A stretch of DNA of 64,000 nt, from positions 41,668 to 105,667 of the forward strand of contig NZ_JASGHN010000001.1 of assembly GCF_047602345.1 (NCBI RefSeq), read 5' to 3'. Shown piece after piece: positions 18,138-55,449 of the stretch. The notes beneath the pieces were generated by a model that saw nothing but the letters and a program-made list of their open reading frames with translations, was not told the origin of the DNA and ran no database searches. This stretch comes from Arenimonas sp. GTDB lineage: Bacteria > Pseudomonadota > Gammaproteobacteria > Xanthomonadales > Xanthomonadaceae. The first letter of the stretch is position 1. Every line of letters begins with the position of its first letter. The position numbers and the translations under genes are program-made.

Positions 18138-18230
18138 GGAGAGGTGTCCGAGTGGTTGAAGGAGCACGCCTGGAAAGTGTGTAAGCGTCTAAACCGCGCT
18201 TCGGGGGTTCGAATCCCCCTCTCTCCGCCA
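18138..18230 (+). tRNA. tRNA-Ser(GGA)
   Basis: Cloverleaf with long variable arm, anticodon loop CT-GGA-AA, GGTTCGAATCC, encoded CCA. Confidence 0.97.
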
Positions 18231-18280
18231 GTTTTGAGTTGTCGAAGACTTTCCGCTCGCGATAGCTTTCGCCTGCAAGT

Positions 18281-18401
18281 GGAAAGAGGGGGTGAGAACC
18301 CCCGAGGGTTCGACGGATCGGCAAGATTGCCGATCCGGACGGCGAAGCCGCCCGCAGGGCGAGGCACAGGATGTGCCGAGTCAATCTCCCTCTCTCCGCC
18401 A
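18281..18401 (+). repeat. tRNA-Ser-linked structured element (copy 1), ending in a duplicate of the tRNA 3' end
   Basis: Ends in CCCTCTCTCCGCCA (14 nt identical to the tRNA 3' end, offset 171); homologous to the reverse complement of 51950-52069 and 52109-52228. Confidence 0.85.
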
Positions 18402-18419
18402 AATCGCCAGTTCGTACGT

Positions 18420-18449: not shown

Positions 18450-18560
18450 GGTGGCCCCGTCGGCCCCTCGCGACGATAGGTCGAAAACCCCGCCAGGGCC
18501 GGAAGGCAGCAACGGTATTGACCGATTCGGGTGCCGAGACCAGCCGGCGGGGCTGCCACC
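18450..18560 (+). ncRNA. ffs: Signal recognition particle 4.5S RNA
   Basis: Domain IV core CAGGGCCGGAAGGCAGCA with GGAA tetraloop; GGTGGC...GCCACC terminal stem; dnaX-adjacent position. Confidence 0.92.
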
Positions 18561-18638
18561 CTCTTCGAATTCCTTTCGCGATCGTTGGCGAAACTTCGCC
18601 GGCTCCTGTCGCCCTGTCCGGCCTTCATCGCAGGCAGC

Positions 18639-18692
18639 CAGCAACGGTCGACCGATTCGGGAGCCGAGACCCGCCGGCGGGGCTGCCACCCT
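18639..18692 (+). repeat. Degenerate direct repeat of the SRP RNA 3' half
   Basis: CAGCAACGGT-C-GACCGATTCGGG-A-GCCGAGACC-C-GCCGGCGGGGCTGCCACCCT versus 18507-18562. Confidence 0.9.
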
Positions 18693-18693
18693 T

Positions 18694-19179
18694 TCAGATA
18701 TCGCCGACGTCGCGCTTGCCGCCGCGCTTGCCCAGCAACTTGGCCGGCCCGACCACGATGGCATGCGACAGCGCCTTGCACATGTCGTACACGGTCAGCG
18801 CGGCGATGCTCGCGCCAGTCATCGCTTCCATCTCCACCCCAGTGCGATGTGCGGTCTTCACCGTGCATTCGATGCGCAGCGTGTTGCCGCCGGCCCAAGC
18901 CACGTCGAAACGGCAACCATCTATCGGCAGCGGATGACAGAACGGGATCAGCTCATGCGTGCGCTTGACCGCCATCGTGCCGGCGATGATCGCGGTATCG
19001 ATCACCGCGCCCTTGGCGGTTTTCAGCTCGGATTCGCGCAGCACCGCAGCGACTTTCGCCGGGAACCTGACGCGACATTCCGCCCTCGCCTCGCGCACGG
19101 TGACCGGTTTCGATGAAACGTCGACCATCGCCGGACGTCCGGCCTTATCCACGTGGGTAAGTCGCGATTTCCCTTTCAT
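18694..19179 (-). CDS. moaC: Cyclic pyranopterin monophosphate synthase MoaC
   Basis: [46 protein letters not shown]. Confidence 0.96.
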
Positions 19180-28365: not shown

Positions 28366-29165
28366 GCGCCGCGATCGATCGGCTCAGGCTTCTCAGGCAG
28401 GACGCGGGAAGCGCAACGCCAGTGATGGCGCCCAGCCCTGTTCCGGATGAGCTGCGCCGGCTGCTGGGCATCCGTGCACGAGCCAAGGCACCCGCTCGAG
28501 TCGCGCCCGATCGTTGGCTGACAGGCGATCAGATCTCGCCTGGCCTGCGTTTCCTGGAACAGTTCCATGAAGCGCCCGAACTCCCCGACGAGATCGACGC
28601 CGATTTCGCCCGAATGGGTCGATTCCGGACCAGCGACCTGCTGTTCTTCGATACAGAAACCACCGGCCTGGCCGGCGGCACGGGGACGCGTGCGTTCATG
28701 ATCGGTGCGCTGGACGTACAGGACGACCGGCTGAGGTTGCGGCAACTGTTGACCACGACCATGGCCGCCGAAACATCGATGCTGCAGACATTCGCCGACT
28801 GGATCGGCCCGCAGACTGCGCTCGTCAGCTACAACGGCAAGAGCTACGACAGACCGTTGCTGTCGACGCGCTATCGCCTCGCGCGGCTTCCCGATCCGCT
28901 ACGCGATCGCGCCCATATCGACCTGTTGCATCCGGTGCGCCGTCGCTGGCGCGGGGCCTGGGAGAACTGCCGTCTCGGCACGGTCGAGCGGCAACTGCTC
29001 GGCGTATTGCGCGAGGACGATCTGCCGGGCTCGGAAGCGCCGCGTGCGTGGACCAGCTATCTGAGAGGCGGTTCGGCCGCGAACCTGCGTCGTGTCGCCA
29101 CGCACAATGCGCAGGACCTCAGGAGTCTTGCCGGTATCTGCTTCGCCCTGGATCGGATGCGGTGA
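28362..29165 (+). CDS. mrfB: DEDDh / RNase H-like 3'-5' exonuclease (MrfB/YprB family)
   Basis: FFDTETTGLAGGTG, SYNGKSYD, HIDLLH, HNAQD; ATGA overlap with the helicase stop. Confidence 0.82.
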   Translation: MSAAIDRLRLLRQDAGSATPVMAPSPVPDELRRLLGIRARAKAPARVAPDRWLTGDQISPGLRFLEQFHEAPELPDEIDADFARMGRFRTSDLLFFDTETTGLAGGTGTRAFMIGALDVQDDRLRLRQLLTTTMAAETSMLQTFADWIGPQTALVSYNGKSYDRPLLSTRYRLARLPDPLRDRAHIDLLHPVRRRWRGAWENCRLGTVERQLLGVLREDDLPGSEAPRAWTSYLRGGSAANLRRVATHNAQDLRSLAGICFALDRMR

Positions 29166-29202
29166 AAAAGAAAAACGCCCCCGAGGGGCGTTTTCTTTTT
29201 TC
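29165..29202. terminator. Bidirectional terminator shared by mrfB and tRNA-Ser(CGA)
   Basis: AAAAAGAAAAACGCCC-CCGA-GGGGCGTTTTCTTTTTTC. Confidence 0.85.
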
Positions 29203-29293
<91 letters not shown>

Positions 29294-51461: not shown

Positions 51462-51538
51462 TGGTCGGGGTAGAGGGATTCGAACCCCCGACATCCTGCT
51501 CCCAAAGCAGGCGCGCTACCAGACTGCGCTATACCCCG
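51462..51538 (-). tRNA. tRNA-Pro(TGG)
   Basis: 77 nt, TT-TGG-GA. Confidence 0.97.
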
Positions 51539-51670
51539 AAGCTGCCCAGGCTGGCCGGAACCGCCTTGGAGATACTTTAAGGTGCCGAAGCCGACCCCCG
51601 CAAATCCGTCGCTACCGCCGCGAACAAAAAAGGTGCCGAAGCACCTGTCTTGTTTCGCCTGAAGCAAAAG

Positions 51671-51747
51671 TGGCGCGCCCGGAGAGATTCGAACTCCCGA
51701 CCACCAAGTTCGTAGCCTGGTGCTCTATCCAGCTGAGCTACGGGCGC
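51671..51747 (-). tRNA. tRNA-Arg(ACG)
   Basis: 77 nt, CT-ACG-AA. Confidence 0.97.
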
Positions 51748-51759
51748 AGCAGAAGCGGA

Positions 51760-51788
51760 ATTATGAAGGAGCCGGTTTTTCGCGTCAA
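51760..51788 (-). promoter_or_regulatory. Sigma70 promoter for the tRNA-Arg(ACG) cluster
   Basis: TTGACG-17 nt-CATAAT on the minus strand. Confidence 0.8.
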
Positions 51789-51914
51789 CATGGGCAGGCA
51801 TCTCCTGGGCGAAGCATGTGGCCACCGTGGAGTCGCCGCACAGGTGCTGTGCCGGGCATCACACACGCAATCCGGCACGACCTCGAATGCACCGGTTCCA
51901 ATTGCACGACGCGG

Positions 51915-52288
51915 AAAAGAAAAACGCCCACAAGGGGCGTTTTCTTTTCTGGCGGAGTGAGAGGGATTCACTCGGGCCATCCCTGGCCCTCGCCCCTTAG
52001 GGGCGGCTCCGCCGTGCTGATCGGCATTCCTGCCGATCAGTCGAACCTTCGGGTTCTCATCCCCTCTCTGCAGAAAAGAAAAACGCCCACAAGGGGCGTT
52101 TTCTTTTCTGGCGGAGTGAGAGGGATTCACTCGGGCCATCCCTGGCCCTCGCCCCTTAGGGGCGGCTCCGCCGTGCTGATCGGCATTCCTGCCGATCAGT
52201 CGAACCTTCGGGTTCTCATCCCCTCTCTGCAGAAAAAGAAAAACGCCCACAAGGGGCGTTTTCTTTTCTGGCGGAGTGAGAGGGATTC
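51915..52288 (-). repeat. Tandem 159/160-bp repeat: [terminator + structured element + 20-nt tRNA-Ser 3' end] x2, ending in a third terminator
   Basis: TGGCGGAGTGAGAGGGATTC at 51950, 52109 and 52269; the two units are identical except for one A. Confidence 0.95.
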
Positions 52289-52361
52289 GAACCCTCGATA
52301 GAGCTTTTGACCCTATACTCCCTTAGCAGGGGAGCCCCTTCGGCCTCTCGGGCATCACTCC
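52269..52361 (-). tRNA. tRNA-Ser(GCT)
   Basis: 93 nt, long variable arm, CT-GCT-AA; csrA-serV-like synteny. Confidence 0.97.
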
Positions 52362-52427
52362 AGAATCGATCCATCGGTGCTTGCGCCAACGCGCGAAGCC
52401 AACCGGAAGGCGCGCTAGGATACTCGC

Positions 52428-52646
52428 TCAATCCTCTTTCGGCAAAGCGTCGTTGCCTTCGCTCCGCGCGGCCGCACCCGCCTCGTCCTTCTGCAGGCGT
52501 TGGAAAATCTCTTCTCTGTGCACGGCAACGTCTTTCGGCGCCGTGATGCCGATCCGCACCTGATTGCCCTTCACGCCCAACACCGTGACCGTGACGGAGT
52601 CACCGATCATGAGGGTCTCACCCACCCTCCGCGTAAGAATCAGCAT
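52428..52646 (-). CDS. csrA: Carbon storage regulator CsrA/RsmA
   Basis: [16 protein letters not shown]...[18 protein letters not shown]. Confidence 0.98.
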
Positions 52647-52782
52647 GGCCTAACTCCCGATACATCCGTGCACCGGTCCGCGGGCCGAACAGCCGCGGCG
52701 CCTGACCGCGCCCCAGGCGCGGTTCAGCTGATGTTAGAACTCCACCTGCCGGGGCGCAACGAGGCCATCCCCGGCCGCAGGG

Positions 52783-55449
52783 TCATTGCAGGCGCTGGGC
52801 CACCCAGTCGCGCACCCCGTCCAGGGCTGCCAGCAAGGCTGGGCCGTCCTGTCCGCCCCCTTGCGCCATATCCGGCCGACCGCCGCCCTTGCCGCCGATC
52901 TGGTTGGCGACATGCGACAGCAATTCCCCCGCCTTGACCTTGCCCAGGGCCGAACCCTGGACACCGGCAATCAGGGAGGCTTTCCCGCCTTCCGCCGAGG
53001 CAAGCAGGATCACGGCATCGCTCAGCCTGCTTTTCAGCGTATCGACGGCATCGCGCAGCGCCTTGGCGTCCAGGCCCTCAAGCCGGGCAGCGACCAGTTT
53101 CACGCCGCCGAGGTCGATCGCGCCGCCGGCAAGATCGGATGTCGCGCCCGCGGCGGCCTTGGCCTTGAAGGACTCGATCTCGCGCTCGAGCTTCTTCTGG
53201 CGGTCGAGTAGTTGCCGCAATTTCTCGACGACATCGTCGCTGCGCGCGCCGATCAGCTCCGCCGCCTGCTCGAGGCGCCGCTCCTGCTCGTTGAAATAAG
53301 CCAGCGCGCCGGCGCCAGTCGTGGCCTCGATGCGTCGCACGCCCGCCGCGACGCCACCTTCGGACAGGATCTTGAACACGCCGATGTCGCCGGTGTGGTG
53401 CACGTGCGTGCCGCCGCACAGCTCCGTGGAGAATTCGCCCATGCGCAACACGCGCACGCGTTCGCCGTATTTTTCGCCGAACAGCGCCATGGCGCCGAAA
53501 TCGATCGCTTCTTGCATTCCCATGTGATGCACTTCGGCCTCGGCATTGCGGCGGATCTCGTCGTTCACCATCGCCTCGATGCGTGCCAGCTCCGCCGCAC
53601 TGATCGGTTGGAAATGCGAGAAGTCGAAACGCAGACGATCGGGCGCCACCAGCGAACCCTTCTGCGTGACGTGCTCTCCGAGCACGCTGCGCAGCGCCGC
53701 ATGCAGCAAATGGGTGGCCGAATGGTTCAGCACCGTCGCCTGTCGACGCGAGCCGTCCACGCGCGCGGATATCTTGTCGCCGACCTTCAACGCGCCCTGC
53801 GTCAATTTCCCGGCATGGCCGTGGAAGATCGCCGACAGCTTGATCGTATCGGCGACATCGAAATGATCGCTGCCCGGATCGAGCAACACGCCGGTGTCGC
53901 CGACCTGGCCGCCGGACTCGGCATAGAACGGCGTGCGATCGAGCACCACGATGGCTTCATCGCCAGCCGCGATGGACGGCACGGGCTTGCCGTCCCTGAG
54001 CAGGGCGACGATACGGCAACCATCGGCCTCCAATGTCTCGTAGCCCAGGAACTCGGTGGCGTGCAGGGAAGCCACGAGGTCGGCGGGCAAGGCGGTGCCG
54101 CCAGCGAACTTGCTGGCCGCGCGGGCGCGCTCGCGCTGCTGTTCCATCAACGCTTCGTATTGCTTCTCCGCCCCGTCGGCCAGGGAGGTTCCCTTCTCGC
54201 GCAGGATGTCGACGATCAAGTCGGGCGGGCATCCGTAGGTGTCGTGAAGCTGGAAAAGCTGCTCGCCGTCGATCCTGCCGCCACCGGCCGCGAGCGCCGA
54301 CTCCAATCGCATCATGCCGGCGTCGAGGGTAGCGGCGAACGCCGCTTCCTCGGCCTTGAGCGCTTGCTCCACGAGCGCTTGCTTCGCGCGCAATTCGGGG
54401 TAGGCCTCGCCCATCATTTCGACGAGGGGCTGCACCATGCGCCAGAAAAGGCCATCGGTCTTCAGGCTGCCGAGCTTCCAGAAATGGCGTACGGCACGAC
54501 GAATGATCCGGCGCAACACGTAACCGCGCCCTTCGTTCGAGGGCAGTACGCCGTCGACGATCAGAAAGGAACAGGCACGGATGTGGTCGGCGATCACGCG
54601 CAGCGACTTGTTATCCAGGTCCTGCGTTTCCGTGAGCCTCGCGGCGGCCTTGATCAGGTGCTGGAAGAGGTCGATCTCGTAATTGCTGTGCACGTGTTGC
54701 AGCACCGCCGACACGCGCTCCAGCCCCATACCGGTGTCCACGCACGGCGCCGGCAAGGGCAACAGCGTGCCGTCGGGCTGGCGATCGAACTGCATGAACA
54801 CGTTGTTCCATATCTCGATGAAACGGTCGCCGTCTTCATCGGGCGAGCCCGGAGGCCCACCCGGGATGTGCGCGCCGTGGTCGAAGAAGATCTCGGTACA
54901 AGGGCCGCAGGGGCCGGTATCGGCCATCTGCCAGAAATTATCGGACGCGAAGGGTGCGCCCTTGTTGTCGCCGATGCGGATGATGCGGTCCGCCGGCAAA
55001 CCGACCACCTTGTTCCAGATGTCGAAGGCTTCGTCGTCCGTGTGATAGACGGTCACGAGCAGCTTGTCTTTCGGAAGTTGCCAGATGCCGGTCAGCAGCT
55101 CCCAGGCGAAGACGATGGCGTCGTGCTTGAAATAGTCGCCGAAGCTGAAGTTGCCCAGCATCTCGAAAAAGGTGTGATGCCGCGCGGTATAACCCACCTG
55201 GTCGAGGTCGTTGTGCTTGCCGCCAGCGCGTACGCACCGCTGCGAGCTGACCGCACGCTTGTAGCTGCGTTTTTCCGCGCCGAGGAATACGTCCTTGAAC
55301 TGCACCATGCCGGCGTTGGTGAACAGCAGGGTCGGGTCGTTGCCCGGAACGAGCGGGCTGGAGGGCACGATGGTGTGGCCCTTGGAAGCGAAGAAGTCGA
55401 GGAAATCCTTGCGGATCTGCGCACTCGAACGGATGGCGCTGGCAGTCAT
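52783..55449 (-). CDS. alaS: Alanine--tRNA ligase
   Basis: [51 protein letters not shown]. Confidence 0.98.

Follow-up and report, generated by a model that had tools for sequence, protein, structure and literature searches.

What is the short tandem array that separates the transfer RNA (tRNA) genes tRNA-Ser(GCT) and tRNA-Arg(ACG) behind csrA in Arenimonas sp., how did it grow, and what might its RNA do? The locus lies in a stretch of 64,000 nucleotides (nt) (assembly GCF_047602345.1, contig NZ_JASGHN010000001.1, positions 41,668 to 105,667), which we analyzed as a whole and call the window. We conclude, with a probability of about 0.8, that the array is a tandem pair of tRNA-linked repeats (TLRs), elements of the RtT RNA family, behind tRNA-Ser(GCT), and that it most likely grew by unequal recombination. 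The class is already known, and as a structure the array is an ordinary further member of it.

On the minus strand, the locus reads csrA, tRNA-Ser(GCT), terminator, element, terminator, element, terminator and the promoter of tRNA-Arg(ACG), and tRNA-Arg(ACG) is followed by further tRNA genes, for Pro, Arg, His, Lys and Leu (51500-52800). Tandem Repeats Finder reported one tandem array at 51914-52288, with a period of 159, 2.4 copies, 99% matches and a score of 741. Unit 1 (52268-52109, 160 nt) and unit 2 (52108-51950, 159 nt) differ only in the U-tract of the terminator, T5 versus T4, which on the plus strand amounts to a single A. Three exact copies of the 20-mer GAATCCCTCTCACTCCGCCA are present (52288-52269, 52128-52109 and 51969-51950; chance expectation 0.01), each at the head of a 55-nt block of 20-mer plus terminator (repeat family D1) that is 100% identical at all three places. 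The three block copies have three distinct exits, CTTTTTCTGCAG, CTTTTCTGCAG and CTTTTCCGCG, which by themselves imply at least two element bodies. A consensus scan placed terminator-like hairpins at T1 and T2 (Table 1) and, on the other strand, at 51921-51943. The sole sigma-70-like site found by the consensus promoter scan of the region, TTGACG-17-CATAAT, precedes tRNA-Arg(ACG), and the 66-nt spacer between csrA and tRNA-Ser(GCT), which lie on the same strand, showed neither a promoter nor a terminator in the consensus scans. Together, the sequence, ARAGORN, the repeat finder, the unit alignment and these scans confirmed the initial annotation in its order of tRNA, terminators and elements, in its periods of 160 and 159 bp with a single A between the units, in the 20-nt T-loop-to-CCA segment that every unit regenerates, and in placing the array between tRNA-Ser and a tRNA-Arg(ACG) with a promoter of its own. 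A protein-coding reading was rejected: open reading frames (ORFs) of 170 and 193 aa cross the array, on both strands, but have their starts within a terminator and overlap tRNA genes, the indels of homologues are not multiples of three, and the stems covary.

The arrangement is that of the tRNA-linked repeats of E. coli, first described in 1978. [quoted passage not shown] RtT RNA has already been listed for Xanthomonas campestris pv. vesicatoria and reported as expressed in differential RNA sequencing of Xanthomonas (PMC3300014). In the Arenimonas array, the units lie on the same strand as the stable RNA gene, beginning 0 and 160 nt past the CCA of tRNA-Ser(GCT), a placement that holds also at the other two TLR loci of the genome; their tails match the 3' end of tRNA-Ser(GCT) at 20 of 20 positions in both units; and the locus comprises two copies flanked by three terminators, within the range of one to five terminator-flanked copies.

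Sequence models tie the units to the family from both sides. In an Rfam scan, RF00391 (RtT) aligned over its full length to both units, at 25.4 and 24.8 bits, and the units share with RtT the motif series GGGGAUGAGAACC..GGUUCGA..GGCGAGG..CGAGUNAAUCC, followed by the tRNA tail. A covariance model, R1, built from eleven aligned copies of the present genome and of other families of the order (alignments A1 and A2), found exactly four copies in the Arenimonas genome, all behind tRNA-Ser genes: besides the two in the array, there is a paralogue after tRNA-Ser(GGA), with no terminator between gene and element and with a tail, CAATCTCCCTCTCTCCGCCA, that differs from the 3' end of its tRNA at 2 positions, and a copy behind tRNA-Ser(TGA) on another contig. 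At tyrT-tyrV of E. coli K-12, the same model recovered all four RtT copies with 22-30 bits, at the very positions to which RF00391 assigns 133-137 bits, and it found three tandem copies (27-34 bits) after serX, where tRNA-Ser(GGA) is followed by 3.4 × 181 bp at 99% identity (Tandem Repeats Finder) in units of terminator, element and tRNA tail. We take these serX repeats to be part of Rudd's set of 22 TLRs. What tells against the assignment is the score, since the units reach ~25 bits and the paralogue 38.5 bits where the gathering threshold of RF00391 is 45 bits. We nonetheless hold the homology because of the full-length alignments, the E value of 8e-6 for the paralogue and the reciprocal R1 matches at tyrT and serX. 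The earlier notion of an unrecognised miniature mobile element was thereby given up in favor of the RtT family, whereas the view of the element as non-coding, tRNA-linked, recently expanded and unlike clustered regularly interspaced short palindromic repeats (CRISPR) was right. Two other candidate identities were discarded: weak Rfam matches to sX4, asX2, CrfA and ctRNA turned out to be only terminator or tRNA matches, and a hammerhead-like reading of GAUGAG...CGAC lacks the essential C3, U4 and A14 and has no Rfam ribozyme match.

Growth of the array by unequal recombination appears likely. The 55-nt direct repeats of tRNA 3' end and terminator bracket every unit, and unequal crossover or slippage between them would add or remove one whole unit. 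Copies at the three TLR loci of the genome are only ~70-83% alike, while those within the array are identical, indicating local duplication and not recent transposition. At the csrA/tRNA-Ser(GCT)/tRNA-Arg(ACG) locus, most congeners have no element and only a 91-141-nt gap, sometimes with remnants; a single element is found at the tRNA-Ser(GCT) locus of a metagenome relative, with similar T1 and T2, and of the genomes G061, G071, G034 and G030. One copy would thus likely have become two at tRNA-Ser(GCT) by unequal exchange, and quite recently. Upon searching for copy-number polymorphism, we obtained no match to an exact 46-mer of the unit in metagenome contigs, and a looser 33-mer returned three related metagenome contigs with one copy each. 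A possible trace of the reverse event stands elsewhere in the window, at tRNA-Ser(CGA), 23 kb from the array, whose 3' end and terminator match the array block up to exactly the point where the element would start; this block looks, from its sequence, like the solo product of an unequal-crossover deletion or of ectopic conversion.

Each unit would constitute a ~120-nt structured RNA gene with its own terminator. The element falls into three parts. The first copies, in antisense, the acceptor 3' strand together with the T-arm; the second is a sense copy that covers the T-stem with the first half of the T-loop (GGTTCGA); and the third is a P3-P4-P5 module that leads into the second half of the T-loop through CCA. 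In alignment A3, which comprises 71 distinct copies, 94.7% of cells are paired over the four helices, versus 77.5% in column shuffles and 30-50% with slid partners, and 20 of 22 pairs change on both sides, figures that lean toward the structure, A3 having been fitted to the model; double changes in P3 and P5 were seen too in an independent MAFFT alignment. The minimum-energy fold of the unit has a z score of -4.8 and contains both hairpins with a GGA loop. The outer helix, in which the 5' strand pairs with the tRNA-derived tail, varies with the type of tRNA, extending over 17 bp behind tRNA-Ser(CGA) in G034 and reading GGGAGGGG/CCCTCTCC behind tRNA-Gln. In the ~40 nt that precede GGTTCGAC, the last 33 nt of the upstream tRNA recur in antisense: antisense local alignments gave a mean score of 12.5, versus 6.8 and 6.3 for the sense and the shuffled control, with a score of at least 12 in 48 of 84 copies versus 1-2 of 84 in the controls. 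The tail, for its part, is identical to the local tRNA at 17 of 17 positions in 25 of 59 copies and tracks lineage-specific substitutions in the tRNA, which indicates concerted evolution of tRNA and repeat. Sequence and covariation showed that the tRNA-derived parts pair with each other, in P1 and P2, and that the module takes the position of the T-loop, and this sense/antisense-tRNA scaffold adds to what is known of TLRs. A cloverleaf-like fold through GGCGGAG/CUCCGCC, present in the minimum-energy structure of this copy, was set aside, as the pairing is not conserved in other copies.

Copies of the repeat are widespread among relatives. Within the genus, 16 of 60 other species had an R1 match, as did 90 of 150 complete genomes sampled from the order (50 of 61 genera) and 65 of 149 from the class (complete, one per family), and a strict core pattern matched more than 120 contigs of named organisms, among them Lysobacter, Pseudoxanthomonas, Luteimonas, Thermomonas, Dokdonella, Dyella, relatives of Idiomarina, Aeromonas, Rheinheimera, Erwinia, Brenneria and Klebsiella. 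The upstream gene is a tRNA-Ser in 50 of the 60 resolved cases and a tRNA-Arg, Gln, Lys or Glu in the rest, to which the class sample adds tRNA-Tyr. Tandem arrays with a period of 160-185 are frequent: G025, for example, has five or more units behind tRNA-Ser(TGA), and G034, G091 and G204 have three or four.

Some copies in these surveys were rearranged. In five contigs of metagenome-assembled genomes (L113, L124, L153, L158 and L159), the body of a tRNA-Ser runs directly into GGTTCGAC and the P3-P5 module; judging from their junctions, these tRNA/TLR fusions look as if a deletion had joined the T-loop of the tRNA to the repeat's T-loop-like GGTTCGA. Two metagenome contigs (L247 and L249) carry the tRNA-Ser(GCT)-TLR segment inverted relative to the tRNA-Arg cluster, so that csrA converges on the TLR from the other side. 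In E. coli K-12, the 198-nt spacers argV-argY and argZ-argQ (L251, 2818135-2818473), downstream of csrA-serV, gave weak R1 matches (11 bits, E ~0.05) and are possibly decayed TLRs at the equivalent of the locus in this species.

The P3 and P5 hairpins point to a candidate partner of the RNA. Their loops in the two units, CAGGAAUG and CAGGGAUG, match CsrA/RsmA binding motifs, namely the CsrB repeat CAGGA(U/A/C)G and the consensus (A/U)CANGGANG(U/A) from hcnA and from systematic evolution of ligands by exponential enrichment (SELEX), shown as a hexaloop. Over all copies, the loop consensus is C-AGGA-(N)NG in P3 and CA(N)GGAUG in P5, and the stems covary while the loops are almost invariant, indicating selection on the loop sequence itself. 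GGA is present in the P3 loop of 59 of 71 and the P5 loop of 64 of 71 copies of the order and genus, and in 40 of 42 copies of the class (one per family) for either loop, all counted on copies that were gathered and aligned with a model itself containing GGA. Each unit exposes two GGA loops, 48 nt apart, a spacing that a CsrA dimer can bridge. On these sequence grounds, we put binding of CsrA by the units at slightly better than even odds. Each unit would bind one CsrA dimer, and the array would act as a weak decoy whose level follows transcription of the tRNA operon, although that such a decoy is physiologically meaningful is a good deal more doubtful.

Precedent for binding exists in the rRNA-linked copies of E. 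coli: RrA, RrB and RrF pull down CsrA and bind it via GGA loops, and RrB bound CsrA in pull-down and gel shift with a dissociation constant (KD) of ~100 nM in a GGA-dependent manner (PMC8144298). In our alignments, both GGA loops are gone from the tyrT and serX copies of E. coli, which explains why tRNA-linked copies of that species are predicted not to bind, and in its sequences E. coli looks like the exception among TLR carriers. In the 99.7% complete Arenimonas genome, no CsrB, RsmZ or RsmY was found above the Rfam cut-offs; the sub-threshold RsmZ and RsmY matches proved to be terminators and the 3' end of transfer-messenger RNA, and GGA-rich windows elsewhere in the genome were all uninformative, lying under long ORFs. 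Across the class, TLRs occur in 63 of 130 CsrA-positive versus 3 of 20 CsrA-negative genomes, a co-occurrence (Fisher p = 0.007, uncorrected for phylogeny) that speaks for a link to CsrA; all three CsrA-negative carriers are fragmented bins.

Several observations, besides the model dependence of the GGA counts and the lack of a phylogenetic correction in the co-occurrence test, weigh against a CsrA-related role. The 19 tRNA-linked TLRs of E. coli are predicted not to bind CsrA, and deletion or overexpression of rrA/B/F alters CsrA phenotypes only modestly (PMC8144298). A consensus scan of the region found no promoter of the element's own, and T1 looks strong, so read-through may be low. The csrA-serV-argV synteny is ancient and conserved, and TLRs follow many tRNAs far from csrA, so that the adjacency seen here follows from synteny and may mean nothing.

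A reading to which we give a smaller but real share of the weight is that the TLR RNA is real and acts in cis, in tRNA 3' processing or termination, or is a near-neutral by-product of recombination, with GGA loops that have nothing to do with CsrA. The 5' strand of the element can pair in two ways, either with the element's own tail or with that of the upstream tRNA, where it would lengthen the T1 hairpin, and the repeated tail has been proposed to serve RNase E recognition (PMC8144298). In E. coli, tRNA-linked TLRs persist as arrays despite the loss of both GGA loops, and the CsrA phenotypes of rrA/B/F are weak. Such a role would not account, however, for GGA loops that stay invariant on covarying stems across the class and match both the CsrB repeat and the SELEX/hcnA motif, nor for the amplification of the two-hairpin module alone in two congeners.

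These two congeners multiplied the module beside csrA. In G045, a complete genome, the internal 70-nt P3-P4-P5 module of one element at the tRNA-Ser(GCT) locus is repeated 5.0 times, with no internal terminators, and G070 carries at least two modules of 74 nt at the same csrA-adjacent locus, where its contig breaks within the array. The form is rare, as an order-wide search for internal-module arrays returned mostly unrelated coding repeats and only G263 and G149 as TLR-like. As a tentative proposal, TLRs across Gammaproteobacteria may represent an ancestral CsrA-binding module, consisting of two GGA hairpins in a sense/antisense scaffold of tRNA 3' ends, in which read-through of the terminator would couple the availability of CsrA to transcription of tRNA and rRNA operons. 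The tRNA-linked copies of E. coli would then be degenerate, and the csrA-adjacent tRNA-Ser(GCT) locus, in a genus without recognisable CsrB or RsmY/Z, would have expanded repeatedly and be evolving into a possibly autoregulatory CsrA sponge. The first TLR at the Ser(GCT) locus of G045 (L093 880-1070) is also interrupted by a ~190-nt insertion with the long inverted repeat GTAGGAGCGATGGCAATCGCGAC, probably an element resembling a miniature inverted-repeat transposable element.

The register of the G045 and G070 arrays bears on how the Arenimonas array grew, for which the initial annotation had offered site-specific insertion or unequal recombination. Under the former, a mobile miniature element would have inserted repeatedly into the 20-nt tRNA 3' end, for example as a 160-bp circle served by a recombinase encoded elsewhere, and each insertion would have recreated its target. 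Consistent with this, every unit regenerates the 20-nt segment, the family stands behind many different tRNAs with a tail that matches each, and a short tree of 100-nt cores mixes copies of different tRNA-Ser loci within lineages, suggesting movement or conversion. The element, however, lacks coding capacity, and the ORF list holds no recombinase, integrase or island remnant at the locus; the ~70-83% likeness between loci set against identity within the locus is not what insertion would leave; the unit includes a terminator, and the 55-nt perfect repeats suffice for homologous unequal exchange; and G045 and G070 amplified another register, 70-74 nt without the tRNA tail, which is impossible for insertion of the attachment-site (att) type. 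We therefore regard insertion as improbable; unequal recombination is the best supported of the two mechanisms, and iterative insertion has no support. What speaks against unequal crossover as the whole account is the core tree, too short for firm conclusions on movement between loci: crossover alone does not account for traffic between loci, where slower exchange occurs, probably aided by the near-identical 3' ends of the serine isoacceptors.

Tandem repeats longer than the k-mer of an assembler often receive a wrong copy number, and the exact metagenome search for the unit gave nothing to compare with, but an assembly artefact, with a true copy number of one or some other, is very improbable: a collapsed single copy cannot explain three distinct downstream junctions and a one-base difference between units, and like arrays exist in E. 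coli K-12 as well as in relatives whose genomes are single contigs. The repeated tRNA 3' ends could also be taken for attL/attR scars of islands or prophages that successively integrated and then decayed at tRNA-Ser, since such genes are classic targets of integration, which duplicates their T-loop-to-CCA segment. This origin is effectively refuted by the conservation and covariation data: the 100-nt body is a conserved, covarying RNA that occurs across the class behind many tRNAs and holds an antisense tRNA copy, which att sites lack, and the ORF list shows no integrase or island remnant at the locus.

Table 1. Features of the tRNA-Ser(GCT) array and of related loci in the window, in window coordinates.
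Feature	Position	Strand	Evidence or remark
csrA, 72 aa	52428..52646	-	ORF list; PF02599 match 88 bits at G000:C1:94158-94313
tRNA-Ser(GCT); last 20 nt = first copy of the repeated segment	52269..52361	-	ARAGORN; Rfam tRNA 53 bits
Repeat block copy 1: tRNA 3' end (20 nt) + terminator T1, stem-loop 52263-52239	52234..52288	-	Family D1; terminator scan
TLR unit 1, RNA body	52109..52227	-	R1 104 bits; RF00391 25.4 bits full length; fold z = -4.8
Unit 1, P1 5' strand GAGAGGG; P2 GAACC/GGTTC	P1 52227-52221; P2 52215-52202	-	
Unit 1, P3 hairpin with GGA loop; P4; P5 hairpin with GGA loop	P3 52199-52176; P4 52164-52150; P5 52148-52133	-	
Unit 1, tRNA-like tail GAATCCCTCTCACTCCGCCA	52128-52109	-	
Repeat block copy 2: TLR tail + terminator T2, stem-loop 52103-52079	52074..52128	-	Family D1; terminator scan
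TLR unit 2, RNA body	51950..52068	-	R1 104 bits; RF00391 24.8 bits
Unit 2, P1 5' strand; P3; P5; tail	P1 52068-52062; P3 52040-52017; P5 51989-51974; tail 51969-51950	-	
Repeat block copy 3: TLR tail + terminator T3; repeat end ~51914	51915..51969	-	Tandem Repeats Finder; family D1
TTGACG-17-CATAAT promoter of tRNA-Arg(ACG), gene 51747-51671	51760..51788	-	Downstream boundary of the locus; conserved in relatives
tRNA-Ser(CGA) 3' end + terminator, near-identical to block copy 1, no TLR	29160..29222	-	~55 identical columns of 60, one 2-nt gap
Single paralogous TLR after tRNA-Ser(GGA), gene 18138-18230	~18272-18402	+	RF00391 38.5 bits, E 8e-6 genome-wide; R1 105.5 bits

Other repeats were noted near the TLRs of the genome. 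A dispersed mini-repeat of ~50 nt with two hairpins, (C)AGG|CCGGAAACCGCTCCTGCGTTTCCGGCAyTyyCGCCATCCATGGCGGTC, has four genomic copies (C3:6895-6945, which is L003 ~1452-1502; C4:90094; C6:18148; C10:349839), each directly after AGG or CGG. One of them lies within the P3 GGA loop of the tRNA-Ser(TGA) TLR, and congener G010 has a homologous mini-repeat inside the P5 GGA loop of the TLR at its Ser(GCT) locus. The first ~20 nt of the tRNA-Ser(TGA) gene (GGAGAGATGGCCGAGTGGT) are present in an extra copy ~65 nt upstream of the real gene (L003 1203-1225, G000 C3). After the tRNA-Ser(GGA) TLR, at 18460-18700 (+), follows the gene for the signal recognition particle (4.5S) RNA, whose 3' part is duplicated ~130 nt downstream (43 nt, 95% identical, family D15).

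TLRs have been known since 1978, and the sole experimental lead to their function, binding of CsrA by three rRNA-linked copies of E. coli, was thought inapplicable to tRNA-linked copies. Outside E. coli, the tRNA-linked copies retain two hairpins whose stems covary and whose GGA loops hardly vary, and the occurrence of these hairpins throughout the class, together with the independent multiplication of the module beside csrA, makes the function of TLRs directly testable. It also makes TLRs a candidate for the missing CsrA antagonist in many bacteria of the Lysobacterales type.

Among known systems, the serX repeats of E. coli share the plan of the array, a tRNA-Ser followed by a terminator, an element ending in the last 19-20 nt of the tRNA and a further terminator, repeated, but they follow another isoacceptor, are not adjacent to csrA and have lost GGA from both hairpin loops (the P3 loop being GCGACAGC and P5 degenerate). 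The RtT RNA, or rttR, is reportedly encoded by 178-bp repeats of the E. coli tyrT-tyrV operon, as described by Egan and Landy in 1978 and by Bosl and Kersten in 1991 and 1994. These repeats resemble the array in the shared motifs and tRNA tail, in the reciprocal model matches and in the tandem arrangement, and differ from it in being linked to tRNA-Tyr instead of tRNA-Ser, in having no GGA loops and in overlapping the small ORF tpr, which has no counterpart in the Arenimonas array. RrA, RrB and RrF, located between T1 and T2 of E. coli rrnA, rrnB and rrnD, have in common with it the dual terminators, GGA in hairpin loops, a 3' end that copies the upstream stable RNA and expression by read-through, which by analogy we propose for the array. 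Unlike the array, they follow 5S rRNA as single copies.

The sponge RNAs CsrB and CsrC, RsmX, RsmY and RsmZ, and RsmU of Xanthomonas (PMC7694677) provide the closest functional parallel, in that they titrate CsrA or RsmA by several GGA hairpin loops. TLRs differ from them in lacking sequence homology, a promoter of their own and known control by GacA/UvrY, and in offering two sites per unit, with binding being predicted; in line with this, RF00018 had no match in the genome, and RF00166 and RF00195 matched below threshold elsewhere and not at the array. The CsrB repeat nevertheless resembles the P3 loop, and the modular build of the sponge RNAs resembles the fivefold array of G045.

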